Source: Candidatus Iainarchaeum sp.
GTDB lineage: Archaea; Iainarchaeota; Iainarchaeia; Iainarchaeales; 0-14-0-20-30-16
Assembly (NCBI GenBank): GCA_903916665.1
Contig: CAIWXP010000013.1
Location: 1-24,631 of the forward strand
Reading direction: 5' to 3'
DNA length: 24,631 nucleotides
The notes below the pieces were generated by a model. It did no database searches, was not told the DNA's origin, and worked only from the letters and a program-made list of their open reading frames with translations. Within the stretch, counting starts at the first letter, position 1, and every line of letters starts with the position of its first letter. Both the position numbers and the translations under genes were made by a program. Positions 1,211-16,857 of this stretch are shown piece after piece.

Positions 1211-1573
1211 ATGACTACCAACGAGAAAAATGAAGCTGATTTGAATAAACGATCTTCACAATTAAAAAGAGTACAAACTCAATTTGACAAAAATGAATAT
1301 AGATCTGCAATAACAAGAGCAAGAATATTATTAGAAAGAGGAGTACCCGATGCCTATTTCTTAGTTATGAATGCTTGTGTAAAACTAAAAGATGTTAAAA
1401 CTGCAGAAAGAATAGTTAAATTGGCATTAAAAAGAAATATTCGAAAAGACTATTTAGCAAAAATATTATTAGATGTATATAATGAAGCTGAAGAATTTAA
1501 CAAATATGATAAATTATACGCTAATTTAAAAATAATGAGTGCTGAAGAAGCACTAAGAAGTATTACTTCTTAG
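1211..1573 (+). CDS. Hypothetical small helical protein
   Basis: 120-aa ORF with coding-like composition and helical-repeat-like sequence. No family recognised. Its 3' end overlaps the convergent gene by 11 nt. Confidence 0.45.
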   Translation: MTTNEKNEADLNKRSSQLKRVQTQFDKNEYRSAITRARILLERGVPDAYFLVMNACVKLKDVKTAERIVKLALKRNIRKDYLAKILLDVYNEAEEFNKYDKLYANLKIMSAEEALRSITS

Positions 1574-2030
1574 TTTTCTTTTCTTGTTTGTAATTATCTA
1601 AATGATTTGGTAAATCTTGTTTTGTTGAAAAATCTTTGTATATGTGATGATTTACCAACATATGCCAATTATTTCCAATATTATAGGTAAATAATCCCAA
1701 AAACATAATTACTATTGCAAACAATACCCAAATTAAAGGCCAAAATGAAACCATTACATTTATTGTCTGATCTTGAACATATCTATCTGGATATAATGCA
1801 TGACCTGTGGTTTGATAAAAATAATCTCTACACAAAGAAGCATCTGCAGCAGTGTTTGCTTTTTCAAAACAAGTTTTTATACTACTCATAGTATCCCATT
1901 GATGAAATAGATTTGCAAATGAAACTATAAAACCAATCAACCCTATAAAGAATACAAAGGTTGCAATTAAACTAATTATATTAAAAGTATGTTTTTTATT
2001 AGACATGTATGGAATATTATGCCAAGCCAT
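1563..2030 (-). CDS. Hypothetical membrane protein
   Basis: 155 aa with two clear hydrophobic helices (FNIISLIATFVFFIGLIGFIVSF and VMVSFWPLIWVLFAIVIMFLGLF). A GGAGATGAT Shine-Dalgarno-like element lies 7 nt upstream of the ATG. Confidence 0.55.
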   Translation of the reverse strand: MAWHNIPYMSNKKHTFNIISLIATFVFFIGLIGFIVSFANLFHQWDTMSSIKTCFEKANTAADASLCRDYFYQTTGHALYPDRYVQDQTINVMVSFWPLIWVLFAIVIMFLGLFTYNIGNNWHMLVNHHIYKDFSTKQDLPNHLDNYKQEKKTKK

Positions 2031-2059
2031 TAATAATCATCTCCTATTTATGGTTCCTG

Positions 2060-2101
2060 TTATATAATTTTGATATTTTGAGAAATTATTAACTGAGCCA
2101 T
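2060..2101 (-). other. 13-codon upstream mini-ORF (MAQLIISQNIKII) with its own GAGGTGAT ribosome-binding site
   Basis: On the minus strand, GAGGTGATTATTAATGGC precedes the mini-ORF. It nearly duplicates GGAGATGATTATTAATGGC, which precedes the 155-aa gene about 70 nt downstream. Confidence 0.25.
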
Positions 2102-2178
2102 TAATAATCACCTCAAACTAGAAAATAATATGACTTGGATTTATTTAAACCTTTTGTTTGACCACAATACTCTTTTAA

Positions 2179-3186
2179 TCAATAAAGCGTCTCGGCATTT
2201 ATGGGATAATTTGTAGTTATTCTTATATCATTTACTCCCAAAACACTTTGCGATACTCTATTAAATCCTATTCCACAACCCGAGTGTAATATTCTATGGT
2301 TTTTTATCAAATCTAAATAATCTTTAAATGTATCTAAAGTTATTCCTCTTTTAACTAATATTTTATACATGTTACTATCTTTTAATCGTTCAACTAAAAT
2401 ATTATAATCATCTTCTCTTTCTGCGCTTCCCACACTTTCCCCGGCATAGGGCATTAATAAATCGCAACTATTTACAATATCTTCATTTTCTCTATTCACA
2501 CGCATGTTAAAAAATTTTATTTTCTTTGGAAAATGTGTAACAAATGTTGGTTTATTTCCTAATAACTTTATTATTTCCATTTCATGCATATGCTTAAAAT
2601 CATCACCCCAATTTATTTCAACACCATTTTTTTGTAATAATTGTATCGCATCAGTATAGGTAACTCTATTAAAAGGCAAAGTAAAACTTCTTAATTCATC
2701 AATATTTCTACCTAAACTTTTCAATTCATCGTGAGTTAAATCCAATGCATTATTTATCATACTTTTTATTGTTCCTTCTATATTATTTAATAATTCATCT
2801 AAAGTTCCAGCATGCTCAAATTCTAAAAGCATAAATTGATTTAAATGTCGCGAGTCAACTGCTTGCTCAGCTCTAGAACTTGTAATAGTTGTCCAAACTT
2901 TTTTGTGACTTGGTATTTTTGCTTCTAAAAAAAGCTGTCCGGTTTGTGCCAAATATGCTTGTTTACCAAAATGATCTAAAGCGTATAGTGTATCAACATT
3001 TTCACAGGCACCGGTAACCTTTGTCATTGTTGGAACTTCTACCCACAAAAATCCTTTTTTCTGCAAATATTGAGTTGCTCCAGAATATAAAGCATCATTT
3101 ATTTTATCTATTTTAGACATCTCATCACAGGTTACCAATTCAAATCTATTATTTGTTTCTTTTAGCTTATCCATCACATCACCCAA
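2179..3186 (-). CDS. Class II aminoacyl-tRNA-synthetase catalytic core without an anticodon-binding domain (archaeal AsnRS-paralog / AsnA-like asparagine synthetase)
   Basis: 335 aa. Class II motifs are present: GFLWVEVPTMTK, RHLNQFMLLEFEHAG (motif 2-like) and GCGIGFNRVSQSVLGVNDIRITTNYP (motif 3-like). There is no N-terminal OB-fold domain. The tracked start is TTG at 3186; the ATG at 3174 (MDKLKE...) is an equally plausible start. Confidence 0.65.
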   Translation of the reverse strand: MGDVMDKLKETNNRFELVTCDEMSKIDKINDALYSGATQYLQKKGFLWVEVPTMTKVTGACENVDTLYALDHFGKQAYLAQTGQLFLEAKIPSHKKVWTTITSSRAEQAVDSRHLNQFMLLEFEHAGTLDELLNNIEGTIKSMINNALDLTHDELKSLGRNIDELRSFTLPFNRVTYTDAIQLLQKNGVEINWGDDFKHMHEMEIIKLLGNKPTFVTHFPKKIKFFNMRVNRENEDIVNSCDLLMPYAGESVGSAEREDDYNILVERLKDSNMYKILVKRGITLDTFKDYLDLIKNHRILHSGCGIGFNRVSQSVLGVNDIRITTNYPINAETLY

Positions 3187-3218
3187 AACTATTGCTATGG
3201 AAGTATTATAAATTCATT

Positions 3219-3240
3219 TGTTGTAAATTATTTTACAACA
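3219..3240. promoter_or_regulatory. Perfect 9-bp inverted repeat (TGTTGTAAA-ttat-TTTACAACA) abutting a TATA-like box; candidate operator of the TrmB-family regulator
   Basis: Read directly from the sequence. It lies in the 78-nt divergent intergenic region, immediately upstream of TTTAATATATA (about 3243-3253) and about 30 nt upstream of ATG 3274. Confidence 0.4.
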
Positions 3241-3264
3241 CTTTAATATATAGTTTAAAGACCA

Positions 3265-4002
3265 ATGATTACTATGGAATTATACAATACATTAAAACAT
3301 TCAGGATTAACAAAAAACGAATCTAAAATATATTTGGCACTAATTAGATTGGGTTCTGTGAAAGCAGGACAGGTATCAAAGGAAACCGAATTTAATAGAA
3401 CTACTACCTACGAATGTTTGAAATCTTTGGGGTCTAAAGGTTTGGTAAGCTACGTTATAATTGGAAAAATAAAATATTTCCAAGCATCAAATCCCAAAAA
3501 TTTAGAAATGTATATGCAAGATAAATTAGATGATATAAAATCTATTTTACCAGAATTAGAAAAACAATATAAATCAACAAAACTAAAAGAAAATATTCGT
3601 TTATTTAAAGGGAATAAAGGAGTTAAAAGTGTTTTAAATGATATTATTGAAAATGCAAAAGAAAATTATATATTTGGTTCTGAAGGTCAACTAGAAGAAA
3701 GATTACCAGAATATGCAAAAAAGTTTGTTACTATTTTAGAAAAGAAAAAAGTTCAAGTTAGAAGTATAGTTAGATCAGGAAGAACTACAAAAGAAACAAG
3801 GAATAAAAAAAATAAATATATTGACATGGATGTTGAATCACCAGTAGTTACAAATATATTTAATAATAAAATTGCAATAATAATTTGGTCAGAAATACCA
3901 GAAGTTATTTTAATAGAAAATGAAAATGCTGCAAAAAGTTATAAAGAGTTTTTTGAATTTATGTGGAAAAATGCAAAAACTAATTCTAAAAAATCAAAGT
4001 AA
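3265..4002 (+). CDS. TrmB-family winged-helix transcriptional regulator
   Basis: The N-terminus (LKHSGLTKNESKIYLALIRLGSVKAGQVSKETEFNRTTTYECLKSLGSKGLVSYV) is the typical TrmB HTH. The second ATG at 3274 (MELYN...) may be the true, possibly leaderless, start. Confidence 0.75.
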   Translation: MITMELYNTLKHSGLTKNESKIYLALIRLGSVKAGQVSKETEFNRTTTYECLKSLGSKGLVSYVIIGKIKYFQASNPKNLEMYMQDKLDDIKSILPELEKQYKSTKLKENIRLFKGNKGVKSVLNDIIENAKENYIFGSEGQLEERLPEYAKKFVTILEKKKVQVRSIVRSGRTTKETRNKKNKYIDMDVESPVVTNIFNNKIAIIIWSEIPEVILIENENAAKSYKEFFEFMWKNAKTNSKKSK

Positions 4003-4038
4003 ATTTTAAAATAAATATTTAGAAAAACTAATTATAAT

Positions 4039-5439
4039 TTATTTACCATTAATATTTTTTGCATTAATTCTCGCTTGTTCTGTTGGATAATCAGCATTTA
4101 AACAACCTGTGCATATTGGTAAACCTATTGCTTTTTGTAAACCTTCAATTGATAAGTATCCTAGGGAATCAGCAGTTAAAAATTTTCTAATTTCTTCAAT
4201 TGATTTCTGATTTGCAATTAATTCCCCAAAAGAAGGTATATTAACACCATAAAAACAAGGATTTGTTATGGGAGGAGAAGTTATTCGCACATGAATTTCT
4301 TTTGCTCCTGCCTCTCTTACACTTAAAATTATTTCTCTTAATGTGGTGCCTCTAACAATACTATCATCAATTAATACCACACTTTTGTTTTCTATTAAAC
4401 CTCGAACTGGATTTAGTTTCATTCTCACAGCTAAAGCTCTTTTATCTTGATTTGGCATAATAAAAGTTCTTCCGATATATCTGTTTTTTATTATTCCTTC
4501 TTCATAGGCAATGTTTAATTCTTTTGCAAAAATTTCTGCTGCTGTTCTTGATGTATCTGGAACAGGAATAACAACATCTGCTTTTACTAAATGTTCTTTT
4601 GCTAATTCTTTTCCTAGGTTTTTTCTAATTTCAAAAACATATTGATCATTTATTTTTGAATCTGGTCTTGAAAAATAAACATATTCAAACATACAATGTT
4701 TTATTTCTTTTTTCAAAATATTTTTTCTTTCTATTCCTGAATTATTTATTAAAACTAATTCACCAGGATTAACTGAACCTTTATATGGGATTTTATTTAT
4801 ATCCAAAGCAACACTTTCAGATGCAAAACAAATATAGTCTTCATTCTCGCCCCAAACCAAAGGCCTTATTGCATGAGGGTCTCTAAATACTAATAATTGA
4901 CCAGCAACAATACAGGCATTAGAATAGGCACCATCCAATTTTTGCATTAAATGTTCTAATACTTTTTCTAAACTTAAACCTAGTTCTAATTGTTCTTTTA
5001 ATAAAAACGCAATTATTTCCGAGTCAACAGTTCCATCAAAAACAAAACCTGTTTGTTCTAATTCTTTTTTTATCATAACATAATTAGCTAAATGCCCGTT
5101 ATGAGATACGGCAATATTTTTGTAAACCAAAGGCTGAACATCAACAATTTCACAGGCAGAAACAGTAGGATATCTTGTATGTCCGATACCAATTGATCCT
5201 TTCAAATTTAACTTTTCAGTAAATACTTCATTAACTAGACCAAAGCCTTTTTTTGTATTTAAATTATAGCCATCAAAAATAGTCATACCACAAGCATCTT
5301 GTCCTCTATGTTGTAAAGCTAACAATGCCCTATATACGGCAGGAGCTACATCTAATCCTTTCTTAGACAATATGGCAACTATCCCGCACTCTTCTCGTTT
5401 TTCTTCGGTATTAAAATTAGTTAAATTTAATTTACTCAT
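4039..5439 (-). CDS. purF: Amidophosphoribosyltransferase (glutamine-PRPP amidotransferase)
   Basis: Ntn Cys after a short propeptide (EECGIVAI), the PRPP-binding loop VVLIDDSIVRGTT, and Fe-S cluster cysteines (PCFYG, CTGCLNADYP). Confidence 0.9.
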   Translation of the reverse strand: MSKLNLTNFNTEEKREECGIVAILSKKGLDVAPAVYRALLALQHRGQDACGMTIFDGYNLNTKKGFGLVNEVFTEKLNLKGSIGIGHTRYPTVSACEIVDVQPLVYKNIAVSHNGHLANYVMIKKELEQTGFVFDGTVDSEIIAFLLKEQLELGLSLEKVLEHLMQKLDGAYSNACIVAGQLLVFRDPHAIRPLVWGENEDYICFASESVALDINKIPYKGSVNPGELVLINNSGIERKNILKKEIKHCMFEYVYFSRPDSKINDQYVFEIRKNLGKELAKEHLVKADVVIPVPDTSRTAAEIFAKELNIAYEEGIIKNRYIGRTFIMPNQDKRALAVRMKLNPVRGLIENKSVVLIDDSIVRGTTLREIILSVREAGAKEIHVRITSPPITNPCFYGVNIPSFGELIANQKSIEEIRKFLTADSLGYLSIEGLQKAIGLPICTGCLNADYPTEQARINAKNINGK

Positions 5440-5479: not shown

Positions 5480-6235
5480 TTAATCTAAATTTGAATCAAA
5501 TATTTTTAATTTCGAAATTTCTGGAAGCTTTAATAATCCTAGTTCTTTATCTATTGCAATTATTTTCAATTTATCTATATCAACATCATTTCGTAAAATT
5601 GGAGATAATAAATGTCTTTTGTCAATTAAATTAATTTCTGTACCGGCACTTAAAGGAGAAAAACTAGGCATAACAATTATATTCTTTTTATCTAAAGTTT
5701 TTCCATAAACAAAACAAGGTAATTTAAATTTTTCAAACCCTTGTCTTAATACTACTGCTGGTTGTTCGTGACCCATAACTACGATTTTAAATTTTTTATC
5801 TGGCAAAGCTTTGTGGCCATGAGTAAATAAAACATCTTCAATTAAAAGATCTTCAACTAATCTTAATTTATATTTTGCAACAATTTGTGGCAAGAAAGTA
5901 TCATGATTTCCTTTTACTATTATGATTGTTTTTATTTCTTTTTGTATAGTTTCAATAAAATGCGATAATTCAGAAAATTCTTCCTTTGAATTTCTTGTAA
6001 AATCATGTTTAAAATCACCATTAATTAATAATCGTTTAGGTTTTAATTCTTTAATGATATTTAATAATTCTTCTAAAATTATCTTTGTTTGATGCTTTGG
6101 CAAAAAAAATCCTTTTGATGCAAAATAATTTTCTTGCCCTATTTGTAAATCTGCAATCACTAATAATTCTAATGATTTAAAATACAGTGCTTTATCATAG
6201 ACAAAAATATTTTTAAAAATTTCTAGTTTATTCAT
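5480..6235 (-). CDS. PdeM/MPE-type calcineurin-like metallophosphoesterase (Lhr-associated nuclease family)
   Basis: Motifs LLVIADLQIGQ, LLINGDFKHDF, VKGNHD, FTHGH, GHEQPAV and LPCFVY match the ligase/Lhr-associated PdeM family. It lies 12 nt downstream of the Lhr gene. Motif I reads D-L-Q where D-x-H is expected. Confidence 0.7.
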   Translation of the reverse strand: MNKLEIFKNIFVYDKALYFKSLELLVIADLQIGQENYFASKGFFLPKHQTKIILEELLNIIKELKPKRLLINGDFKHDFTRNSKEEFSELSHFIETIQKEIKTIIIVKGNHDTFLPQIVAKYKLRLVEDLLIEDVLFTHGHKALPDKKFKIVVMGHEQPAVVLRQGFEKFKLPCFVYGKTLDKKNIIVMPSFSPLSAGTEINLIDKRHLLSPILRNDVDIDKLKIIAIDKELGLLKLPEISKLKIFDSNLD

Positions 6236-6247
6236 TATATCACAACA

Positions 6248-8500
6248 TTAGGTTCCAACTTTCTCAATAATCTTTTTATGCAAAGCTAATAATATTTTCT
6301 TTCTATCTTCCATTAAAACTATATCTGCATCTGCTAATATTATTAAATTATGAGCAAATGGACTTGCTAAATTACTTTCAGGTAATTGCTCTAATTTAAT
6401 TTTTCCTGTGTTAATTTTATCTAATATTACCAAAGCATTATTTATATCCATGTAGTCTACCATTACTTCTCTAAATACTTCTTCAATAACTGGAAAATTT
6501 TCAATTGCGTCACAAACTTTAAATAAACGATCAGCACTCATCTGTTGACGTCCTGCGGGGTACTCATAGCCTTTATAATTTCTCAAAATCATCAATGATC
6601 TTGTGGCAACATGTCTGAATTTTCTTTTTAATAATTCTGTTTGTTTTAATGCTAGCCTTAATATCCCTGAAAAATTATCTTTTCTAATACTTTTGAATAA
6701 TTCTGATGTGTGTGGGCAAAGTTTTTTATCCTCTGCATGAATTGTTAAAATAAATCCATTATCATTCACACCAATTGGAATACTTCTTTCAACTTGTTTT
6801 GATAAAATAAATGCCAATACTCTTGACAAAGCATCATTAACTCTTCTTCCAAACAATGCATGAAATATTAAATTTTTATTGCCGGCATCATCAATATAAT
6901 CTTCTATAACTATATTATTATTGTTAGGATAAATATTTGTTTTTAGAGAATCTAAAAACTTTTGTTCATAGTAAAAATAATCTGTTATTGCTTTGCTTGC
7001 ATTCAAATCAATTTTATATTCTTTAATTAAGTGATCTTTGATTTCTGTTTTTGTTTTAAATTTACAAAGCACAAAAATCTCACCACGAAATTTTCCTATT
7101 TCTTGAGATAAATCAAAATTCAAAGGTAATTGTTCTGAAAACCAACTAGGTACTGTAGGCTTTCTATCTTTCAAAGCAATAACAAATGCAGTCATTCCTA
7201 ATGAACGAGAAAACTGATAACTTTTTCCCGCCAAAACAAAAATATCTCCTTTTGATAAACGAGCTAGAAAATCTTCCTCTATTGTTCCAATGATATCTCC
7301 TTTTGTTGTTTTAACTTTCACTTTAACTTCATCAGGAATAGTTCCTATGTTCATTGAATATAACATTCTCGCTAATCTTCCTCGCTTTCCAAATTGATTT
7401 AACACAGGATCATACCAAATTTTTCCATAGACGTGTTTATCTTCTAAACTATGATATTCCCCTGACATATATTTTATTACATTCATGTAAGTTTCGTAGG
7501 TTATATCGTTATAACAATAGGATTGCTTAATTAATTCGTAGGCATCTTTGATATACCATTTATTTTCTAGACTTAATCCCATAATATGTTGACACAAAAC
7601 ATCCAAAGCATTTTTTACTATATGAATTCTATCTAACCAGTTTTCTGATGCTTTCTTGAACATTACAGTTGTTTCAACCAAATCATCTCTATCTAAGCAA
7701 ATAACTCTTCCTTTAGATGTTTGATGAATCTTATGCCCAGCTCTTCCAATTCGTTGAAGTGCTCGCGAAACACTTTTAGGTGAGCCTATTTGTATTACTA
7801 AATCAACAAATCCAATATCAATTCCTAATTCTAAACTTGTTGAACTTACAATAACTTTTAATTTTCCTGCTTTCAATTTATTTTCCAATTCTAATCTTGT
7901 TTCTTTTGAAACAGAAGAATGATGCGCACCAATATCTTCATCACTATAGGTTTCAGGATAACTATCTTTTAAATGATGAACTATTCTTTCTGTTCCCGAT
8001 CTTGTATTAGTAAAAATTAAAGTTGTTGTATGGGTTCTAATTTGTTTATCTAAAAAATCATATAATTTTTTGTTTATAGTTTCTGTATCAGTATACATCA
8101 AATCATTTGTTGGACTCATAACAACTATATCCATTGTTTTTGAAAATCTTGCATCTATTACTATACAATCTCTTGGTTCATTATTTTCAAAACCAACTAA
8201 ATATTTCGCAACTTCTTCCAATGGTTCTAGTGTAGCTCCTAAACCAATTCGAACCATTTTATGTTCAACTAAATGTTGTAACCTTTCAATACTTAATGAT
8301 AAATGAGCACCTCTTTTTGAATTTGCTAACTCGTGTATTTCATCAATAACAATATATTTAACACTTTTTAATTTTTCTCTGAATTTTGGAGCACATAATA
8401 ATATTGCTAATGTTTCAGGAGTAGTACATAAAATATGTGGAGGCTTTCTTAATTGTTTAGCTCTTATTTTTGTTTCTGTGTCACCAGTTCTTATTCCCAC
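6248..8500 (-). CDS. lhr: Lhr-family superfamily-2 DNA helicase, C-terminal 750-aa fragment (motif Ib to C-terminus). It is in frame with the upstream fragment across one TAA.
   Basis: RTGDT, PPHILCTTPETL, the DEIH box (VIDEIHEL), FTNTR, SSTSLELGIDIG and QRIGRAGH, followed by Lhr-type WH and C-terminal domains. The tracked start is a GTG that is simply the Val codon of ...LRVGIRTGDT. Confidence 0.85.
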   Translation of the reverse strand: MGIRTGDTETKIRAKQLRKPPHILCTTPETLAILLCAPKFREKLKSVKYIVIDEIHELANSKRGAHLSLSIERLQHLVEHKMVRIGLGATLEPLEEVAKYLVGFENNEPRDCIVIDARFSKTMDIVVMSPTNDLMYTDTETINKKLYDFLDKQIRTHTTTLIFTNTRSGTERIVHHLKDSYPETYSDEDIGAHHSSVSKETRLELENKLKAGKLKVIVSSTSLELGIDIGFVDLVIQIGSPKSVSRALQRIGRAGHKIHQTSKGRVICLDRDDLVETTVMFKKASENWLDRIHIVKNALDVLCQHIMGLSLENKWYIKDAYELIKQSYCYNDITYETYMNVIKYMSGEYHSLEDKHVYGKIWYDPVLNQFGKRGRLARMLYSMNIGTIPDEVKVKVKTTKGDIIGTIEEDFLARLSKGDIFVLAGKSYQFSRSLGMTAFVIALKDRKPTVPSWFSEQLPLNFDLSQEIGKFRGEIFVLCKFKTKTEIKDHLIKEYKIDLNASKAITDYFYYEQKFLDSLKTNIYPNNNNIVIEDYIDDAGNKNLIFHALFGRRVNDALSRVLAFILSKQVERSIPIGVNDNGFILTIHAEDKKLCPHTSELFKSIRKDNFSGILRLALKQTELLKRKFRHVATRSLMILRNYKGYEYPAGRQQMSADRLFKVCDAIENFPVIEEVFREVMVDYMDINNALVILDKINTGKIKLEQLPESNLASPFAHNLIILADADIVLMEDRKKILLALHKKIIEKVGT

Positions 8501-8521
8501 TCTTAGGTCTAATTTTACTTT

Positions 8522-8914
8522 TTATTTCTTTTTTGCGATTTCACTTATTTCTTCTAAAGGAGTAATTAGATTTTTTTCAACATCATTAATCAATGCTTTC
8601 AAAGGACTAATATAGATACAATAAACTTCGTCTTTCAATTCTTGTTTTTCTTCTAAATTACAAAGTTCATTTATTATTGCTCCAAAACCAGAAATAGTTT
8701 TTCCTGATCCTGTTGGCGCAGTTACTAAAGTATTTTTACCTAGGTGAATTGCAGGTATTGATAATCTTTGAGGGGGTGTTAACTTCTTGAAACCTGTTTC
8801 AAACCATTCTCTAACGTAAGGTCTTAAGATAGCAAATACTTCTTTGTCCTCAGGAGCCTTATCGCTGGTAATATACTTAATCATAAAATCACAACATAAA
8901 CATGAATTAATCAA
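8522..8914 (-). CDS. lhr: Lhr-family helicase, N-terminal fragment (Q-motif and Walker A), ending at an in-frame TAA
   Basis: VREWFETGFKKLTPPQRLSIPAIHLGKNTLVTAPTGSGKT ... YISPLKALINDV is the canonical Lhr N-terminus. The likely true start is the second ATG (MIKYI..., 8884). Confidence 0.85.
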   Translation of the reverse strand: MINSCLCCDFMIKYITSDKAPEDKEVFAILRPYVREWFETGFKKLTPPQRLSIPAIHLGKNTLVTAPTGSGKTISGFGAIINELCNLEEKQELKDEVYCIYISPLKALINDVEKNLITPLEEISEIAKKK

Positions 8915-9064: not shown

Positions 9065-10273
9065 CTATTCTATTTGATGATCATCGTAGTTTAGAATTCT
9101 ACCTGCGTCTTCAGATCTATTTTCAGCAGTATAATATTGTGATAGCTTTTGAGACACTCTCGCAAAACCAGCCATATCTTTATGTAATCTATATTGTTCT
9201 CTAGCAAAAAGATATGTTGATTCCAATTCTCTTTTAAAATCAACTAGGGATAATCCAAATGCAGTATAATGATCCCAACCATCCTGGTTTTTTTTTAATT
9301 TATATTTTTTCTCATTATGACTCATATCTGGAACATAGGTATTTTTAATAAATAATGAATCTACGGACTCTGGATAATATTTTGAATATTGATCTCCAGC
9401 GATTTCAAATAAATCTGCAAAATTATTATTATCACCAATTAATGTTGATTTTAAACTATTAATAAATTCTCTAAAACCCATAAAAAATACATAAGCCTCT
9501 ACCGTTTCTTTTATTTGACTCATTTTCCCAGACCTATCTATACTATTATAATTATAGGAAATCGGTTTTTTATATTCTGTAGGATAACTTAAAATTAAAT
9601 ATTTAAAAAAATCATTAAATATGGACTCGCCTAATGATCCACCAAATCTACTACAATAGTCTTTAACAAAATGTATAAAATCAGAGAAATCTGGTAAAAT
9701 TAAACTTTTCTGTTTCCATTTCTGGTCAACTGTTCTAATATCAAATGATCCTGAAATATTATCGACAGAAAAATGTAAAGACAATATGGAACGCACCATA
9801 TTTTTTAAAAAACTATTTCGTTCAAAAATTTCTTTGGGGCTGCTACCAAATTCAAAGCACTTTAAAAAAAGATATTTTAATGCAAATGATTGAACTTTTG
9901 AAGTATAATTTGTATTTACAGAATTTCTAGAATCTAAATATTTTTGTATTATGATTTCAAATCTTTTTGTTCTCCAAAAATCCTCAAATTCAAAAAATAT
10001 AGAATCATTCCCTGACTCCAACGCATTATCAAACAATCCAAAAAAATGATTTTCTATAATTTCTGAATCTTTCTTCGGATCTCCAACTAATAATGATCTA
10101 TCAAATCCCTTAGGTAAATAATCACTATGAGCTTCTTCACGAGATTGATCTGCAGCAATTCTTTTAGCTAATTCAAATTGCCTTAAACGATTTTTTAATT
10201 TTAATTCTTGATTAAAATTACGCCGTTTTCTTAATGCCTCTACTAATCTTTTAAATGTTGGTTTTTCAGCCAT
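9065..10273 (-). CDS. Hypothetical 402-aa protein, last gene of the GHKL-swivel cluster
   Basis: Long uninterrupted ORF that starts 17 nt after the upstream gene. It has a basic N-terminus (KRLVEALRKRRNFNQELKLKNRLRQ) and looks mostly helical. No motif recognised. Confidence 0.7.
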   Translation of the reverse strand: MAEKPTFKRLVEALRKRRNFNQELKLKNRLRQFELAKRIAADQSREEAHSDYLPKGFDRSLLVGDPKKDSEIIENHFFGLFDNALESGNDSIFFEFEDFWRTKRFEIIIQKYLDSRNSVNTNYTSKVQSFALKYLFLKCFEFGSSPKEIFERNSFLKNMVRSILSLHFSVDNISGSFDIRTVDQKWKQKSLILPDFSDFIHFVKDYCSRFGGSLGESIFNDFFKYLILSYPTEYKKPISYNYNSIDRSGKMSQIKETVEAYVFFMGFREFINSLKSTLIGDNNNFADLFEIAGDQYSKYYPESVDSLFIKNTYVPDMSHNEKKYKLKKNQDGWDHYTAFGLSLVDFKRELESTYLFAREQYRLHKDMAGFARVSQKLSQYYTAENRSEDAGRILNYDDHQIE

Positions 10274-10290
10274 AGTTTCACATTTTAATT

Positions 10291-11409
10291 TTATAATTTC
10301 TTTATATCATAGGGTGTTAGATCTTGAGTCATAACTTGTATTTTTAAGTTATTTGGTAAATGCCAAACTATATCTTTAAATACTGCTGCATGACCTGATT
10401 CATATTCATCTAATTTTAATATTTTTGCAATTTCACCATGTATTTTTCCAAACCAAAATGGAATTAATTGTGGATCTATTTCACCAAAAATATCTTTTGC
10501 TTCAATAAATTGTCTAGACATACCATAAACAGCAATAAATTCAGTATATTCTTTTTTAGACAATTTTTTCTTTGCTAATTTAACAATTTTTTCTAATCTT
10601 ACTTTCATTGATTCAAATCTTTGTTGTAAATCTAATGATTTTTGTCTAAATTGAATACTATGAATTACAACATTATAGACCATTAAATTATCGCCTCTAA
10701 CTTTAGCACCATGAAATGGCAATAATTTCATTACTTCTTGATATAATTTATTATCTTTATGTGATTCTAATTCTATAAGTAATTTCTCAATAATTGCATA
10801 ACTATCATCGTATTTTTCCACTGCAACTTTTGCTTTTATATCATCAGAATATTTCTTTAATGTTTTATTTGAAATCATTAAATCATATAACTTAATTCCT
10901 TTCAAAACACTCTTCAAATATAAATCAGCATAGTCACTTTGCAATAAATCTCTTTCCAATTGTAAAACTGATTTATCTTTTTCATCCAGATCTTCCCATA
11001 CAGATACTTTTTCGGCATATTCTCTAACTTTTGAAACATAATAATCATGTAAAGGCCCATCACAAAATAAATAATTTATAATCCAAAATCTATAGCAAAA
11101 TAATTTATGCAGTCTTTGATCGATATCAATTAAAAAATCTAAGTCTTTTTTCTTACAATTATCATAATCTTTTTTTATCTTCTCAAATCCTTGAAACAAA
11201 TCTTTTTGTAAATCAAAACAAGTTTGTCTAAATTTTACAGGATTATTATGAAGTTGTTTTACTAATTTTGTGTAATATTCTTTTATTGGTGGAAACTTTT
11301 TAGGATAATAAACTGTAAAATCTTCAACATCATTAGGTAAAACTTTTGGAAATCTAAATAAATGTTCTATTTCATTCCCCATCATATACCACCCCATTAT
11401 AGGCATCAA
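10291..11409 (-). CDS. Hypothetical 372-aa helical protein, third gene of the GHKL-swivel cluster
   Basis: Long ORF whose 5' end overlaps the GHKL gene stop (11372-11374). The real start is probably one of the internal Met codons (MMGNEIEHL, about 11385/11382), leaving an overlap of about 11-14 nt. No family recognised. Confidence 0.7.
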   Translation of the reverse strand: MMPIMGWYMMGNEIEHLFRFPKVLPNDVEDFTVYYPKKFPPIKEYYTKLVKQLHNNPVKFRQTCFDLQKDLFQGFEKIKKDYDNCKKKDLDFLIDIDQRLHKLFCYRFWIINYLFCDGPLHDYYVSKVREYAEKVSVWEDLDEKDKSVLQLERDLLQSDYADLYLKSVLKGIKLYDLMISNKTLKKYSDDIKAKVAVEKYDDSYAIIEKLLIELESHKDNKLYQEVMKLLPFHGAKVRGDNLMVYNVVIHSIQFRQKSLDLQQRFESMKVRLEKIVKLAKKKLSKKEYTEFIAVYGMSRQFIEAKDIFGEIDPQLIPFWFGKIHGEIAKILKLDEYESGHAAVFKDIVWHLPNNLKIQVMTQDLTPYDIKKL

Positions 11410-12631
11410 CTATTATTTTTTGACCATCTCTAATTCGTTCTGTTGCATTTCTAGTTCCAACTATTGCTGGAATTCCAAATTCTCTTGCAACTATTGCTGC
11501 GTGACATAAAGCCCCACCTTGATCAGTAACAATTGCACTAGCTCTTTGTATTTGTAAAATAAATTGAGGTCTAGTCATACCAGTTACAATTATGCTTCCT
11601 GGTTTTATTCGATCTAATTCTTTAATTGGTGTTTCAGGCCACAAATCAATTACTACCGCAATACCTTCAACTCGTCCCCCACTTGCCGGCAAACCAGAAA
11701 CTATTTTTTGCAATTTAGTATCAAAATCTTTCATGTAATCAATTAATTTCTTTTTCACTTCTTTAAACTCTTTTGATTCTCTAATCCAATCTCTTTTATT
11801 ATGAGTTACAGGAACATGATCCATATGTAATTCACCAATAATCTGTTTATCTTTTTGAGATGAACTAATTGCAAATTTATCGAACGTACTAATTAATCTA
11901 TTCAATCTATAGGTATTAAAACCGAAATAATCCCCCATAGTATCTTTCATTTTAAAACCATACCAACCAGTAACTTTATTTCCAGAAGGCAATTTAATAT
12001 TTATATTGTGTTTCCCTTCAACTGTTAAATTTATAATATATGGTTTACATAATTTATTATTTACTTTTATTTCAACTAAATTATTTTCTAAAAAAGGAGC
12101 AAATCTTTTTGAAAATTCTTCCATTAATCTTGCAACTTCTTTTTCTTCTGTATTAATTCGTAAATTATTTACTTTAATTATTGTTCCAGTAAATAATTTT
12201 GTTTTTTTAACTAATTGCATAGGATATTTTGTCCAAGATCCTGAATCTAACCATTTCTTTTCTGAATATTCAATAAAATATGCAAATTTATCTTTTTCTG
12301 TAGAAGTGTAAATACTAAACTTTTCACCCATACTTGAACAGGCAGTTTTTAATCCTAAACCAAACATTCCCAAAAGTTTTTTCTTTTTAGAAAAACCTAA
12401 TCTTATTGAACTGGCAGCATCTTCTTTAGACATACCAAAACCATTATCTTCAATAACAATTTCTTTTCCAATTGATATTTTTATATTTAATTTTTTGCCT
12501 TCAACTCTAGCATCAATTGAATTATCAACTAATTCTGCAATTGCTTCTGTTAATGAATATCCACTGTTACCCAATTTTAACATTATAGATCTGTGTGGTG
12601 TAATATCAATATACTCTGTCTTTCCAATCAA
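11372..12631 (-). CDS. MORC/Hsp90-type GHKL (Bergerat-fold) ATPase fused to a C-terminal PEP-utilizer mobile ('swivel') phosphohistidine domain
   Basis: GHKL N-box EAIAELVDNSIDA (Asn37), G1 box IEDNGFGM and G2 box GMFGLGLK, then a prokaryotic MORC-like middle region (GFNTYRLNRLI...IIGELHMDHVPVTHNKRDW). The C-terminal approx. 100 aa (GRVEGIAVVI...PGSIIVTGMTRPQFILQIQRASAIVTDQGGALCHAAIVAREFGIPAIVGTRNATERIRDGQKIIVDAYNGVVY) is a textbook PEP-utilizer mobile domain with the phospho-acceptor His retained (His377, codon 11501-11503). Confidence 0.8.
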   Translation of the reverse strand: MIGKTEYIDITPHRSIMLKLGNSGYSLTEAIAELVDNSIDARVEGKKLNIKISIGKEIVIEDNGFGMSKEDAASSIRLGFSKKKKLLGMFGLGLKTACSSMGEKFSIYTSTEKDKFAYFIEYSEKKWLDSGSWTKYPMQLVKKTKLFTGTIIKVNNLRINTEEKEVARLMEEFSKRFAPFLENNLVEIKVNNKLCKPYIINLTVEGKHNINIKLPSGNKVTGWYGFKMKDTMGDYFGFNTYRLNRLISTFDKFAISSSQKDKQIIGELHMDHVPVTHNKRDWIRESKEFKEVKKKLIDYMKDFDTKLQKIVSGLPASGGRVEGIAVVIDLWPETPIKELDRIKPGSIIVTGMTRPQFILQIQRASAIVTDQGGALCHAAIVAREFGIPAIVGTRNATERIRDGQKIIVDAYNGVVYDGE

Positions 12632-12637
12632 AATAAT

Positions 12638-13354
12638 TCACCTCAATCTCATTGGTTTTATTTTTGGTTTATTATTACCTAGTTCACCAATTCTAAATTT
12701 TTTTTCCATTCTTGGTGCGCCAATTACAAAAGGCATAGTTCTAGATCGCCTAATTTCTGGATGGTTTTGTGCCAACTTCATTGCCAATAGTTTTCCAACT
12801 CTACTAGCTTCTTCAACTAAAAAATATGTTGCTTTAGGACTTGGTTTTGTTTCTGTTTCTTTTAATGATCCTCTTTTGAATTTTGTAGGTTTATCTACTC
12901 TTGAAAATGGGCCTCTAATAGTTGCTCCCTTTTCTGATAATTTTGTATCTAATAAAAAATCTCTGACAATTCTTATTTTTCCTGCATGATCTGGAAATTT
13001 TTCTCTCAACGCAGTTTCAACAGCAGGGTCAACAGCAAAAATAATATCTGATTGCGCCAATAAATCAGCAGTTATTGGTTTACTAAATCGTCTAGTGTAT
13101 ATTTGTCCAAAAACTTCTCCTTTCTTTCTCAAATATTCATCCCTAGCAACAATCATTCTATCTCTAACTTCATCATAAAAACGAGGCATTCCTTGTTCTC
13201 TAGCCCATTCTTCGTTTAAAGCAATAACTTTATCTTTAAAACCAGCACTATCAACGTGAACATCTAAATTCAATGCTCTAGCATATTGCTCTAAAAAATG
13301 CGCAATAGTTAAACTTCTTTTTACATTTTCAGCACAAACTACCAAAACATTCAT
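12638..13354 (-). CDS. Divergent low-molecular-weight protein-tyrosine-phosphatase/ArsC-fold protein with a basic C-terminal extension
   Basis: N-terminal P-loop VLVVCAENVKRS (C-X5-R-S; Cys7 codon 13334-13336), VDSAG, and SDIIFAVD...FPDHAGKIRIV. The usual D-P-Y acid loop position reads G-P-F. An extra Lys/Arg-rich tail of about 85 aa follows. Confidence 0.6.
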   Translation of the reverse strand: MNVLVVCAENVKRSLTIAHFLEQYARALNLDVHVDSAGFKDKVIALNEEWAREQGMPRFYDEVRDRMIVARDEYLRKKGEVFGQIYTRRFSKPITADLLAQSDIIFAVDPAVETALREKFPDHAGKIRIVRDFLLDTKLSEKGATIRGPFSRVDKPTKFKRGSLKETETKPSPKATYFLVEEASRVGKLLAMKLAQNHPEIRRSRTMPFVIGAPRMEKKFRIGELGNNKPKIKPMRLR

Positions 13355-14387: not shown

Positions 14388-16001
14388 ATGCAAAAGGTAT
14401 TTGACACTTCAGCTTTTCTAAATAGATTCTTCTTCAATGACATTGAAAATGTGATAACAACTAATTCTGTATTATTAGAAATAAAAAATAGAGAACAAAA
14501 AATGCAAATTGAAAATCTAATTCAAAGAGGAAAAATTCAAATACAAGACCCTTCAAAAGAAATATTTATTCAAATAAGAGCCAAAGCGCCCAAAATGCTA
14601 TCAAGAACAGATGTTGAAGTGGTAGCATTAGCAAAAGAATTAAACCTAGAATTGCATACTGATGATTTTATGATGCGAAAATTTTGTAATGATTTGAAAA
14701 TTAAAGCTTGCCCAATTGCCTATGCTATGCAAGACAATGAAAATATTTTAGATACTGTTTATGAAAAAATAAAACCTACAAAAGAAGAATTAGAAAATAT
14801 TAAAAAAATAAGTAAAGAAATTATTGCAAAATTGAACATAACAGTAAAAAAAGAAAACTATCCAATTAAAAAAATTATATTGGCAGGATCTAGTCCGAGA
14901 GGTACTTTTATTAGCAATAAAAAAGATCTAGATATATTTTTATTATTTGATTTATCTTTAACTGTTGAAGATATTAGAAAATACAATGAATTAATATTGC
15001 GTAAGACATTTCCAAAAATTAAATTTAGAGAAGAATATGGGGAACACCCTTATTTGAAAGCAGTTATAGATGATCACAATATTGATTTCGTTCCTGGATT
15101 TTATATAAAAAACATAAAAGAAAGAAAATCTTCCGTTGATAGAACACCTTTACATTTAGCTTTTTTAAATAAACATCAAAGTGAAGAAATTAAAAAACAG
15201 GTTATTATTTTAAAACAATTTTTAAAGAATAATTTGCTTTATGGAGCCGATCAAAAAAACAATGGTTTTTCTGGATATTTAACAGAACTTTTAATATTAG
15301 AGTTTAAAACATTTGAAAACACATTAAAAGAATTAATTGATATTGAAAAAAATAAATATATTTACATCAATAAACCCAAAATAATGAAAAAGTTTGACGA
15401 TTACTTTGTTTTCCTAGATCCTACTGATGAATCAAGAAACGTTGCTTCTGCAGTATCAAAAAAAACAATGAGCATATTCAAAGATGTTGCAAAAAGATAT
15501 TTAAATGAAAAGAATATTGATTTCTTTTTCAAAGATATTTATCCAAAAATAGAAAAGGATCTGGTTTGTTTTATTATAAAAATTGATGGAAAAACAGAAG
15601 ATTCAAATTGGGGAATAGTAAAAGGACTAACAAAAAGATTGGCAAATGAATTAAATACAAAACACTATAATGTTGTTAACCATTCTGGAATAATTCATGA
15701 AAATAAAGGATTGATCATTTTAGAGAGTAAATTAAAGGATACATTGAGAGGCCCTGAATTAAAGGACACAAAAAATTCAAAAGCATTTAAAGCAAAACAT
15801 AAAACTTTCTATATCAAAGACAATAGGCTATACTGCGATGTTAATTTATCAAAAGAAGCATTGGTTAAAGATTCTAAAAAGCTTTTGAAAAGTTTATCTA
15901 ACAATAGTGCAAAACTAATTGATTATAAAACCATTAAACTAATGCCCGAAGAATTAAAAAGAATTAGAAAGGACTTTTTAAACCCAAAGGAAAAGGATTA
16001 A
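14388..16001 (+). CDS. cca: Fusion protein: N-terminal Nob1-like PIN nuclease domain plus archaeal class I CCA-adding enzyme (tRNA nucleotidyltransferase)
   Basis: Residues 1-112 (VFDTSAFL...TTNSVLLEIKNRE...LSRTDVEVVALAKELNLELHTDDFMMRKFCNDLKI) resemble the archaeal Nob1 PIN domain and retain the acidic residues D6/E31/D75/D92. No zinc ribbon is present. Residues from about 118 onward carry class I CCA motifs: LAGSSPRGTFISNKKDLDIFLLF, EHPYL, VDFVPGF, SSVDRTPLH and GFSGYLTELLILEF. Confidence 0.8.
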   Translation: MQKVFDTSAFLNRFFFNDIENVITTNSVLLEIKNREQKMQIENLIQRGKIQIQDPSKEIFIQIRAKAPKMLSRTDVEVVALAKELNLELHTDDFMMRKFCNDLKIKACPIAYAMQDNENILDTVYEKIKPTKEELENIKKISKEIIAKLNITVKKENYPIKKIILAGSSPRGTFISNKKDLDIFLLFDLSLTVEDIRKYNELILRKTFPKIKFREEYGEHPYLKAVIDDHNIDFVPGFYIKNIKERKSSVDRTPLHLAFLNKHQSEEIKKQVIILKQFLKNNLLYGADQKNNGFSGYLTELLILEFKTFENTLKELIDIEKNKYIYINKPKIMKKFDDYFVFLDPTDESRNVASAVSKKTMSIFKDVAKRYLNEKNIDFFFKDIYPKIEKDLVCFIIKIDGKTEDSNWGIVKGLTKRLANELNTKHYNVVNHSGIIHENKGLIILESKLKDTLRGPELKDTKNSKAFKAKHKTFYIKDNRLYCDVNLSKEALVKDSKKLLKSLSNNSAKLIDYKTIKLMPEELKRIRKDFLNPKEKD

Positions 16002-16029: not shown

Positions 16030-16857
16030 ATGACTAAGATATTTGATAGGTTAAAAAAAGCTTTTGACTCTGAAGACAGCATTCACGAAAGGGAACTCGA
16101 ATTATTAGAATATATTTCTAAGTATGAGAATAAACTTGAGAAAGAATCTAATTCTGAAAGATGGAAAGATATTGCAAAAACAGTTCAAAAGTTAAAAAAA
16201 GAATTACAAGACTTACATGAAAATGATCCTATTAAATTAAAATATAGATTAGACGAATTAAACAAAGATTTGGCCGATGAAGAAACAAAAAATTCAGAAG
16301 CCAAAACAATTAAAAACTATTTTCAATTCATTGTTGAGAAAAATCTAGCCTGTATGCAAAAAACAAGTGCAGAAGATTTAAAGAGCCTAATTGATTATAG
16401 TGCAATTGATTTTGACATGGTTTTTGAAAAAATAACGCCTAAAGACTATTCCTACGAAGATAATTATTTGGATGCAATTGAAAACCTATATGATTTATTG
16501 GAAGAAGATTTTGATATAATTATTCAAAAAACTCCAAATTACCTATTAACTGCGGCAGACATTTTACAATTAAAATCAGGCAATCAAGCAGATATAAGTA
16601 TATTTGTTTGTGCAATTATGCACAAATTAGGAGACTTTAATGCAAAAGTAACTGTTGCACTATTAGATGATTTCACAACAATTCATTTTGTTCAAACAAA
16701 ATATAAATACAGAACGCTAATATTTGATTTTTATAATTCTGAAAAATACAATGACTACTTAGAATACGATAATAAGATTTGGGAAAAATATAAACCTGAA
16801 GACAAAGCAATAAGAGAAATAAAATTTTCGTTTAATAAGTTTAATTATGAAGAATAA
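16030..16857 (+). CDS. Hypothetical protein with an N-terminal coiled coil and a C-terminal transglutaminase-like (papain-fold) region in which the catalytic Cys position is Gln
   Basis: GNQADISIFVCAIMHKLGDFNAKV...TIHFVQTKY...LIFDFYN aligns by eye with the transglutaminase-core pattern G-x-C-x-D-F-A-x-L-F-x-A-L-x-R-x-L-G...H-x-W-x-E...D. This gives Q186/H219/D233. The 3' end overlaps the first pilin-like gene by 11 nt. Confidence 0.35.
   Translation: MTKIFDRLKKAFDSEDSIHERELELLEYISKYENKLEKESNSERWKDIAKTVQKLKKELQDLHENDPIKLKYRLDELNKDLADEETKNSEAKTIKNYFQFIVEKNLACMQKTSAEDLKSLIDYSAIDFDMVFEKITPKDYSYEDNYLDAIENLYDLLEEDFDIIIQKTPNYLLTAADILQLKSGNQADISIFVCAIMHKLGDFNAKVTVALLDDFTTIHFVQTKYKYRTLIFDFYNSEKYNDYLEYDNKIWEKYKPEDKAIREIKFSFNKFNYEE

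Follow-up and report, generated by a model that had tools for sequence, protein, structure and literature searches.

The window analysed here is the 24,631-nucleotide contig CAIWXP010000013.1 of Candidatus Iainarchaeum sp. (GenBank assembly GCA_903916665.1), on whose minus strand four closely packed open reading frames (ORFs) occupy positions 9065-13354 in the order P1-P2-P3-P4. P1, P2 and P3 are the conserved unit of an operon found in very small symbiotic archaea and bacteria and in some gut Clostridia, to which most lineages add an ATP-grasp subunit. By analogy with characterized enzymes, and with about even confidence, we read the three genes as the DPANN version of a widespread and self-contained operon, not described before, whose products would together form a phosphotransfer machine of several subunits, built on a phosphohistidine swivel and resembling a split dikinase. 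P4 is a lineage-specific addition that lies outside the conserved system.

P2 joins a MORC-type GHKL ATPase to a C-terminal phosphohistidine swivel. Its Pfam matches are HATPase_c_3 (residues 25-125, 3.8e-20, 72.8 bits vs cut-off 25), Morc6_S5 (residues 216-302, 1.7e-11, 44.8 bits vs cut-off 26.2) and PEP-utilizers (PF00391, residues 342-413, 3.7e-26, 91 bits vs cut-off 23.1). In an alignment of 58 homologs, with a mean column identity of 63%, the GHKL residues E33, N37, D40, D62, G66, G88, G91, G93, K95 and T96 are invariant, and T150 of the Bergerat motif set is invariant or nearly so. Lys279 is a candidate catalytic S5 lysine, inferred from sequence. Swivel residues T353, R354, G372, G373, H377, A378, I380 and R383 are likewise invariant, the putative phospho-acceptor His377 lying in the motif GGALCH377AAIVARE; we take its Cys-His context to be that of phosphoenolpyruvate (PEP) synthase, where the equivalent residue would be Escherichia coli PpsA His421. 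The domain assignments of both P1 and P2 in the first-pass annotation are confirmed by Pfam scores and, for P2, by invariant motifs.

Database searches with P2 return 1672 matches; among the matches listed, the full-length homologs are ~404-441 aa long and share the same four-Pfam architecture. Their hosts are Woesearchaeota and Nanoarchaeia (DPANN), many lineages of the Candidate Phyla Radiation (CPR)/Patescibacteria and gut Clostridia, at 43-66% identity, and a single 90% cluster holds 613 members on 244 contigs. The AlphaFold2 (AF2) model of P2 has a mean predicted local distance difference test score (pLDDT) of 89, with disorder confined to the ATP lid (residues 84-92). Foldseek aligns the model to MORC3, MORC2 and MORC4 over 360-420 columns (E ~1e-16), followed by TRAP1/Hsp90 and SMCHD1. 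The solved sequences nearest to the swivel are PEP synthases 9dae (7.5e-24) and 8a8e and the rifampin phosphotransferase (RPH) 5fbs (6e-15); Enzyme I of the phosphotransferase system (PTS; 1eza/3eza) matches at 1e-7. The best NCBIfam matches of the swivel are PEP synthase models, which cover residues 302-418 (~115 residues) at 116 bits vs a cut-off of 598. Given the uniform family, the invariant catalytic residues, the confident model and the kinship of the swivel, P2 looks like an active ATPase joined to a working phosphate carrier, and not a decoy.

Related loci, labelled by L-numbers, were gathered by exact-protein look-ups and by scanning genomes for matches to a profile of P3, and their ORFs were classed by custom hidden Markov models. 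Clustering of the P2 homologs at >=90% identity gave 26 non-redundant locus groups, in which components are lettered A (P2 homolog), B (P3 homolog), C (histidine-phosphatase-type protein) and D (standalone ATP-grasp). A P3 homolog immediately follows the P2 homolog in all 26 groups and its start always overlaps the P2 stop, which argues for translational coupling of the two genes.

P3 is a member of a compact uncharacterized family. At least 75 homologs were found, with identities of 32-54% across domains of life; among 1.84 billion proteins the family comprises 49 representatives at 50% clustering, with no distant relatives. The family has 27 invariant columns, mostly polar and aromatic, and recurring motifs such as DQRxxKLxCYRFWIVNYLFxDGPLH and QSDYADLY. 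N18, D19, K30, K94, N104, Y105, D109, Q149, Y152, D154, Y156, K297, D298, D304 and K348 make up its cluster of invariant polar residues. The AF2 model (mean pLDDT 95, predicted template modelling score 0.88) consists of 18 helices and zero strands. No significant Foldseek match to it emerged from the PDB (best E = 0.2, TM < 0.25) or BFVD, RPH being missing among the matches listed, and a profile search against PDB sequences was likewise negative. P3 falls in no family of Pfam, NCBIfam or PHROGs, and its one match in PADLOC is marginal (0.0025). Kinship with the rifampin-binding domain, with the N-terminal domains of accessory swivel proteins or with the C family was tried with hhalign and rejected (probabilities <= 0.14%). 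The highly charged composition of P3 indicates a soluble protein. Both P3 and P4 had previously been called orphans; neither has a Pfam or NCBIfam family and profile searches placed neither in a housekeeping family, but the term now applies to P4 alone.

A phosphatase-fold gene adjoins A-B in 24 of the 26 locus groups. In seven DPANN-like groups it is of low-molecular-weight protein tyrosine phosphatase (LMW-PTP) type, and in 17 CPR and Clostridia groups it belongs to the histidine-phosphatase superfamily (C family), with RHG...HG motifs. P1 itself scores above the gathering threshold of Pfam LMWPc (33.4 bits, cut-off 23.2), and its VVCAENVKRS loop and VDSAG motif align with the solved LMW-PTP 4lrq. 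The match is strongest at residues 3-40, while the C-terminal half, including the D-P-Y-Y general-acid region, has no confident alignment. BLAST relatives of P1 with an intact CX5RS loop adjoin A-B in L001, L037 and L107, so that the loop is complete in four of the seven LMW-PTP-type groups. The phosphatase slot has undergone non-homologous displacement, LMW-PTP-type proteins occupying it in DPANN and histidine-phosphatase-type proteins elsewhere. Both folds act through covalent intermediates, phospho-Cys or phospho-His. That two unrelated covalent-phosphoenzyme folds fill one operon slot is strong evidence that the phosphatase function is integral to the system, and it strengthens the functional link between swivel and phosphatase that the first-pass annotation had suggested.

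The remaining three LMW-PTP-type groups (L109 1883-2533; L006 6297-6947; L007 4203-4901) have a phosphate-binding loop one residue shorter, C-Y-G-N-T-R-S, and the L109 protein has Asp at the position of the nucleophilic Cys (G-D-Y-G-G-T-R-S). These substitutions suggest that phosphatase chemistry is altered or lost in this short-loop sub-clade of the closest relatives of the window.

Component D, a standalone PPDK_N ATP-grasp protein either alone or fused to a swivel of its own, is present in 16 of the 26 locus groups. It matches PEP synthase 8a8e (2e-67), RPH 5fbs/5hv6 (~1e-64) and 9goj (1.6e-58), and is assigned on these matches as a genuine dikinase ATP-grasp domain. Seven locus groups with readable flanks are without D. 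In the window, neither an ATP-grasp (PPDK_N) gene nor an AsnC-type regulator was found by tblastn in all frames of the 24.6 kb, nor an ATP-grasp by Pfam searches of the other window ORFs. Several CPR loci are expanded: ATP-grasp-swivel fusions of 667-769 aa and an 899-aa double-swivel protein occur in L017 (6675-8678), L018 (4934-7243, 7487-10186) and L036, and the same loci hold up to three further swivel proteins of ~360 aa with varied N-terminal domains. This hints at several acceptors or a multi-step relay. Acylphosphatase genes are present at some loci and, like the extra swivel proteins and the D-swivel fusions, fit a theme of phosphate handling. In gut Clostridia (L023, L025, L027-L031, L033 and L034), contigs from many independent metagenome-assembled genomes stop ~170-380 bp past D (loci of 10773-11003, D end at ~10620), which points to a repeated element, an rRNA operon or insertion sequence for example, just 3' of D that breaks the assemblies.

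The window belongs to a DPANN sub-clade with L006/L110, L007, L107 and L109, in which the order is LMW-PTP-like gene, A, B, with no D in the 6-10 kb that can be read. L006 comes from the metagenome-assembled genome GCA_974428215.1. At four of these loci a regulator of ~325-336 aa with two AsnC-type winged helix-turn-helix domains is divergent from the LMW-PTP-like/A/B genes (L006 4944-5924, L007 3058-4068, L107 5874-6848, L109 625-1614). The four proteins are orthologous (27-42% identity) and are probably the dedicated regulator of the system; in the window, the RNase Z gene rnz takes this place. Gut Clostridia have a divergent AraC plus GyrI-like (small-molecule-binding) regulator in place of the AsnC type. 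L006/L110 also contains a DNA gyrase B gene with an intein (1264-4494, L006 coordinates), and in L107 a LAGLIDADG gene adjoins the regulator.

The four window ORFs and their junctions exist as first described, with one correction (Table 1). P3 had been listed from a TTG at 11409 (10291-11409, 372 aa); alignment of homologs places the start at ATG 11385 or 11382, giving an overlap with P2 of 14 or 11 nt. Six nucleotides separate the P1 stop from the P2 start, and 17 nt the P3 stop from the P4 ATG. The rnz stop precedes the P1 ATG by 10 nt (TGGGGATACA), and a ~150-nt AT-rich spacer containing T-runs follows P4. A scan for sigma-70 promoters and terminators was uninformative in this AT-rich archaeal window (~27% GC; 47 promoter-like sites vs 38 expected). 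Two antisense ORFs, 12006-12311 (+) and 12495-12989 (+), encode 101 and 164 aa opposite P2 and P1; being low-complexity, hydrophobic and wholly inside the conserved genes, neither is likely to be genuine.

Table 1. Coordinates in the window of the four ORFs and of the domains and motifs assigned to them
Feature	Position	Strand	Description	Basis
P1	12638..13354	-	238 aa, LMW-PTP fold (LMWPc) with basic C-terminal extension; phosphatase-fold slot, DPANN form	
P1 phosphate-binding loop	13313..13336	-	C7-A-E-N-V-K-R13-S14 (C-X5-R-S)	Motif search; aligned to CMGNICRS of LMW-PTP 4lrq
P2 (component A)	11372..12631	-	419 aa, TTG start; MORC-type GHKL ATPase + S5 + C-terminal phosphohistidine swivel	
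P2 GHKL (Bergerat) ATP-binding domain	12257..12559	-	Residues 25-125	HATPase_c_3; invariant motif columns
P2 S5-fold transducer	11726..11986	-	Residues 216-302	Morc6_S5; H277, K279 invariant
P2 PEP-utiliser mobile (swivel) domain	11393..11608	-	Residues 342-413	PEP-utilizers; PEP synthase/RPH relatives
P2 His377 codon	11501..11503	-	Putative phospho-acceptor in GGALCHAAIVARE	Invariant among 58 homologs
P3 (component B)	10291..11385	-	364 aa after start correction; all-alpha, P2 partner	
P4	9065..10273	-	402-aa co-oriented ORFan, ATG start, 3' of P3	

The closest parallels to the system are the split dikinases of small molecules, HpeHI (hydroxyphenylethanone kinase) and phenylphosphate synthase PpsAB, in which a separate ATP-grasp subunit (HpeI/PpsB) and a subunit with a C-terminal His-swivel are encoded in compact operons (PMC12167813). 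HpeI and PpsB are equivalent to D of the related loci, by the match to 9goj (1.6e-58). The swivel of HpeH and PpsA is, however, fused to a rifampin-binding-like helical substrate domain, whereas that of P2 is fused to GHKL-S5; the system described here adds the obligate P3 and a phosphatase-fold protein, and the window has no adjacent ATP-grasp subunit. In two-component dikinases and RPH, the ATP-grasp module loads the swivel His, a distant substrate is phosphorylated, and AMP and Pi are released (PMC12167813; PMC4844700). The P2 swivel is homologous to that of RPH and of PEP synthase/pyruvate phosphate dikinase (PPDK), and is C-terminal as in RPH, whose chemistry, ATP + X -> X-P + AMP + Pi via phospho-His, would be expected here (PMC4844700). 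Unlike these enzymes, the system is divided among several polypeptides, has no PEP/pyruvate TIM barrel or detectable rifampin-binding domain, and has a second nucleotide-binding module (GHKL). With the prokaryotic MORC/paraMORC proteins (Iyer, Abhiman and Aravind 2008) and MzaB of MZA, P2 shares the GHKL and S5 domains and intact Bergerat motifs; the survey of prokaryotic MORC proteins mentions no swivel fusion (PMC2292703). In contrast to MORC proteins of conflict loci, P2 has no helicase, nuclease or methylase partners and a housekeeping context. The likeness to the PTS, where a swivel His domain (Enzyme I) starts the relay, is one of logic only, and the system has no HPr, EIIA, EIIC or PEP-binding domain. 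Further down the PTS relay, an EIIB whose fold is LMW-PTP-like is phosphorylated on Cys, and phospho-His is erased by SixA, a member of the histidine-phosphatase superfamily.

Because two-component dikinases and RPH load the swivel His from an ATP-grasp module, we infer a dikinase-like mode of working. ATP would load P2 His377, through D where it is present; in the D-less clade that includes the window, either the GHKL module or an ATP-grasp enzyme encoded at an unlinked site would donate the phosphate. From the swivel the phosphate would next reach an acceptor site, made up of GHKL-S5 and/or the conserved polar pocket of P3, and P1 would remove or relay it through a Cys7 thiophosphate intermediate. 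As the ATPase site is invariant, the MORC module may gate or power the cycle or act as phosphodonor; most likely, it would gate or power the cycle by ATP-driven dimerisation. The role of P3 as acceptor-binding subunit is conjecture.

Several points weigh against this split-dikinase reading. D was found neither in the window nor within the readable 6-10 kb at its closest relatives, and the dikinase step is thus not demonstrable for the window organism. The GHKL catalytic residues are all invariant, although a second ATP site would be superfluous in a simple dikinase. For P3, neither the rifampin-binding domain nor any known fold was recognized as similar, and the evidence on the system is computational. 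The patchy cross-domain spread at 43-50% identity implies horizontal transfer, which is typical also of accessory and conflict genes.

Kinase activity of GHKL domains is familiar from histidine kinases, SpoIIAB and PDK/BCK, and EIIB-cellobiose shows that an LMW-PTP-like fold can act as a phosphocarrier in the PTS. On the chief rival reading, P2 might be a self-contained GHKL histidine kinase that passes the gamma-phosphate of ATP to its own His377, and from there to P1 Cys7 (or the histidine-phosphatase His) and on to a P3-bound target, in a PTS-like relay with D as an alternative or additional input. The invariance of the Bergerat catalytic residues and of the candidate S5 lysine suits such a scheme, as do the minimal conserved set of A, B and a phosphatase-fold protein and the seven groups with readable flanks but no D. 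However, the MORC/Hsp90/MutL-class GHKL-S5 modules, to which P2 is structurally nearest, are hydrolases and not kinases, and the PEP-synthase/RPH-type swivel is encoded with a cognate ATP-grasp in 16 of 26 groups. In the DPANN clade, D might be present at an unlinked site; we regard self-phosphorylation as possible and rather unlikely. A split PEP synthase, PPDK or other central-metabolic kinase mistaken for something novel is highly improbable. Homologs do carry source annotations such as 'PEP-utilizing enzyme', 'pyruvate, water dikinase' and 'probable phosphoenolpyruvate synthase', and PEP synthase models give the best NCBIfam matches of the swivel. Those matches are confined to ~115 residues and 116 bits vs a cut-off of 598, no locus has a PEP/pyruvate-binding TIM barrel (PEP-utilizers_C), and neither the GHKL-S5 module nor P3 has a counterpart in PEP synthase.

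The first-pass annotation had proposed a phosphotransfer or conflict system. As a defence system, the MORC-like ATPase would sense invading nucleic acid and answer with futile cycling between kinase and phosphatase (ATP to AMP + 2 Pi) or with toxic phosphorylation. Restriction and conflict loci are indeed the usual setting of prokaryotic MORC-type GHKL ATPases (PMC2292703), viral contigs often carry generic MORC-like GHKL genes, the distribution across domains of life is patchy, and genes for a ParE toxin and an integrase lie near two loci. P2 also has a weak N-terminal match to MzaB (41 bits vs a cut-off of 850 in NCBIfam). In PADLOC-DB v2, P2 matches MzaB alone, over residues 12-111 of the 500-position model (34 bits), P1 and P4 have no match, and no component matches a defence model over its full length, so the resemblance stops at the generic GHKL N-terminus. 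Among 108 flanking genes at 24 loci (PADLOC and Pfam) no defence family recurs; the flanks are heterogeneous housekeeping genes (aminoacyl-tRNA synthetase (aaRS), YchF, aldolase, iPGM, GyrA, YceG, PfkB, NUDIX), and two CPR lineages have YchF directly 3' of the operon. An abundant Clostridium species of the gut has it at one fixed locus beside sporulation genes. The viral-contig scan found no gene with the GHKL-swivel architecture, the system comes with no nuclease, helicase, methylase or other effector, and P2, at 63% mean column identity, is unusually well conserved, where defence genes tend to diversify. The conflict-system proposal is therefore improbable. The genes pass from lineage to lineage as one block that lies outside defence islands, and we take the system to be a stable cellular function and not a mobile defence island, with P4 and rnz as bystanders. 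The GHKL-swivel/P3/phosphatase combination is not a named system, as had been proposed: no matching architecture emerged from PADLOC or profile searches, and no description of the GHKL-swivel architecture was found in the literature, including recent defence-discovery papers. Least probable is the reading, raised earlier as a caveat, that the genes are transcribed together with rnz and serve as an accessory to RNA or tRNA processing. The rnz stop lies only 10 nt from the P1 start and a PIN-CCA-adding enzyme gene is nearby, but rnz neighbours the system in none of the 25 other locus groups and the closest relatives have the divergent AsnC-type regulator upstream rather than rnz. A functional link to rnz is accordingly not supported.

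P4 has only a self-match among 5.8 billion proteins and no match in Pfam, NCBIfam, PADLOC or PHROGs. A counterpart was sought at related loci by BLAST, tblastn (110 loci) and hhalign and none was found; P4 is absent from all 25 other locus groups. It was also considered as a diverged C, D or E component and rejected (hhalign probabilities <= 0.3%). At 27% GC, with stops at ~8.5% per random codon, the chance of 402 open codons is ~1e-15, so P4 is a real ORF, and it is probably co-transcribed with P3. The earlier proposal of a four-gene phosphotransfer operon thus stands in part: the idea of a single operon centred on phosphotransfer is supported, and the P1 slot, P2 and P3 co-occur across genomes, but P4, without homologs anywhere, does not travel with them, and the four genes as a single conserved unit are ruled out.

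Elsewhere the window encodes housekeeping proteins of archaea (Cdc6/Orc1, PurF, ribosomal protein L10e, RNase Z, an Lhr helicase, a PIN-CCA-adding enzyme and a class II aaRS-like protein). The Lhr-type helicase (6248-8914, -) is in two pieces, a 130-aa N-terminal DEAD fragment (8522-8914) and the 750-aa remainder in another frame (6248-8500, GTG start), reflecting either a frameshift/pseudogene, a sequencing error or a truly split gene. The Metallophos gene that follows it (5480-6235) is 36% identical to a Metallophos gene near the system in L007. Divergent from rnz, the gene at 14388-16001 (+) encodes 537 aa in which an N-terminal PIN_6 ribonuclease is fused to an archaeal class I CCA-adding enzyme (NTP_transf_2 + tRNA_NucTransf2), an unusual fusion. 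The next ORF (16030-16857, +; 275 aa) has a sub-threshold match to UCH (ubiquitin C-terminal hydrolase; 2.2e-4, 21.4 bits vs cut-off 23.9), which would be unexpected for a DPANN-like archaeon.

With these results the cluster drops off the list of candidate new defence systems, and the unit is corrected from four genes to three, with an ATP-grasp partner elsewhere. On the split-dikinase reading, the P1-P2-P3 system would be a new form of swivel-based phosphotransfer enzyme, its GHKL-swivel fusion unprecedented and its P3 fold unmatched. No earlier case would be known of an ATPase of the MORC/Hsp90 class joined directly to a phosphohistidine swivel, so that the known roles of both modules would widen, and P3 contributes a confidently predicted fold without a solved relative. 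More speculatively, and in our view rather doubtfully, GHKL-S5-swivel, P3 and the covalent-phosphoenzyme 'phosphatase' could constitute a third kind of histidine phosphorelay besides two-component systems and the PTS, in which the MORC ATPase, alone or with an ATP-grasp, would charge the swivel His, which would pass the phosphate to a Cys/His carrier and on to an acceptor, as a core function in reduced CPR and DPANN genomes. Among the hosts, Christensenella and Clostridium spp. may prove culturable, or their proteins at least expressible, which puts the biochemistry within direct reach. Much of microbial diversity belongs to the CPR bacteria and DPANN archaea, whose minimal genomes hold many genes of unknown function; conservation of the operon across two domains of life (43-50% identity), and in abundant human-gut Clostridia, makes an important, transferable function likely.

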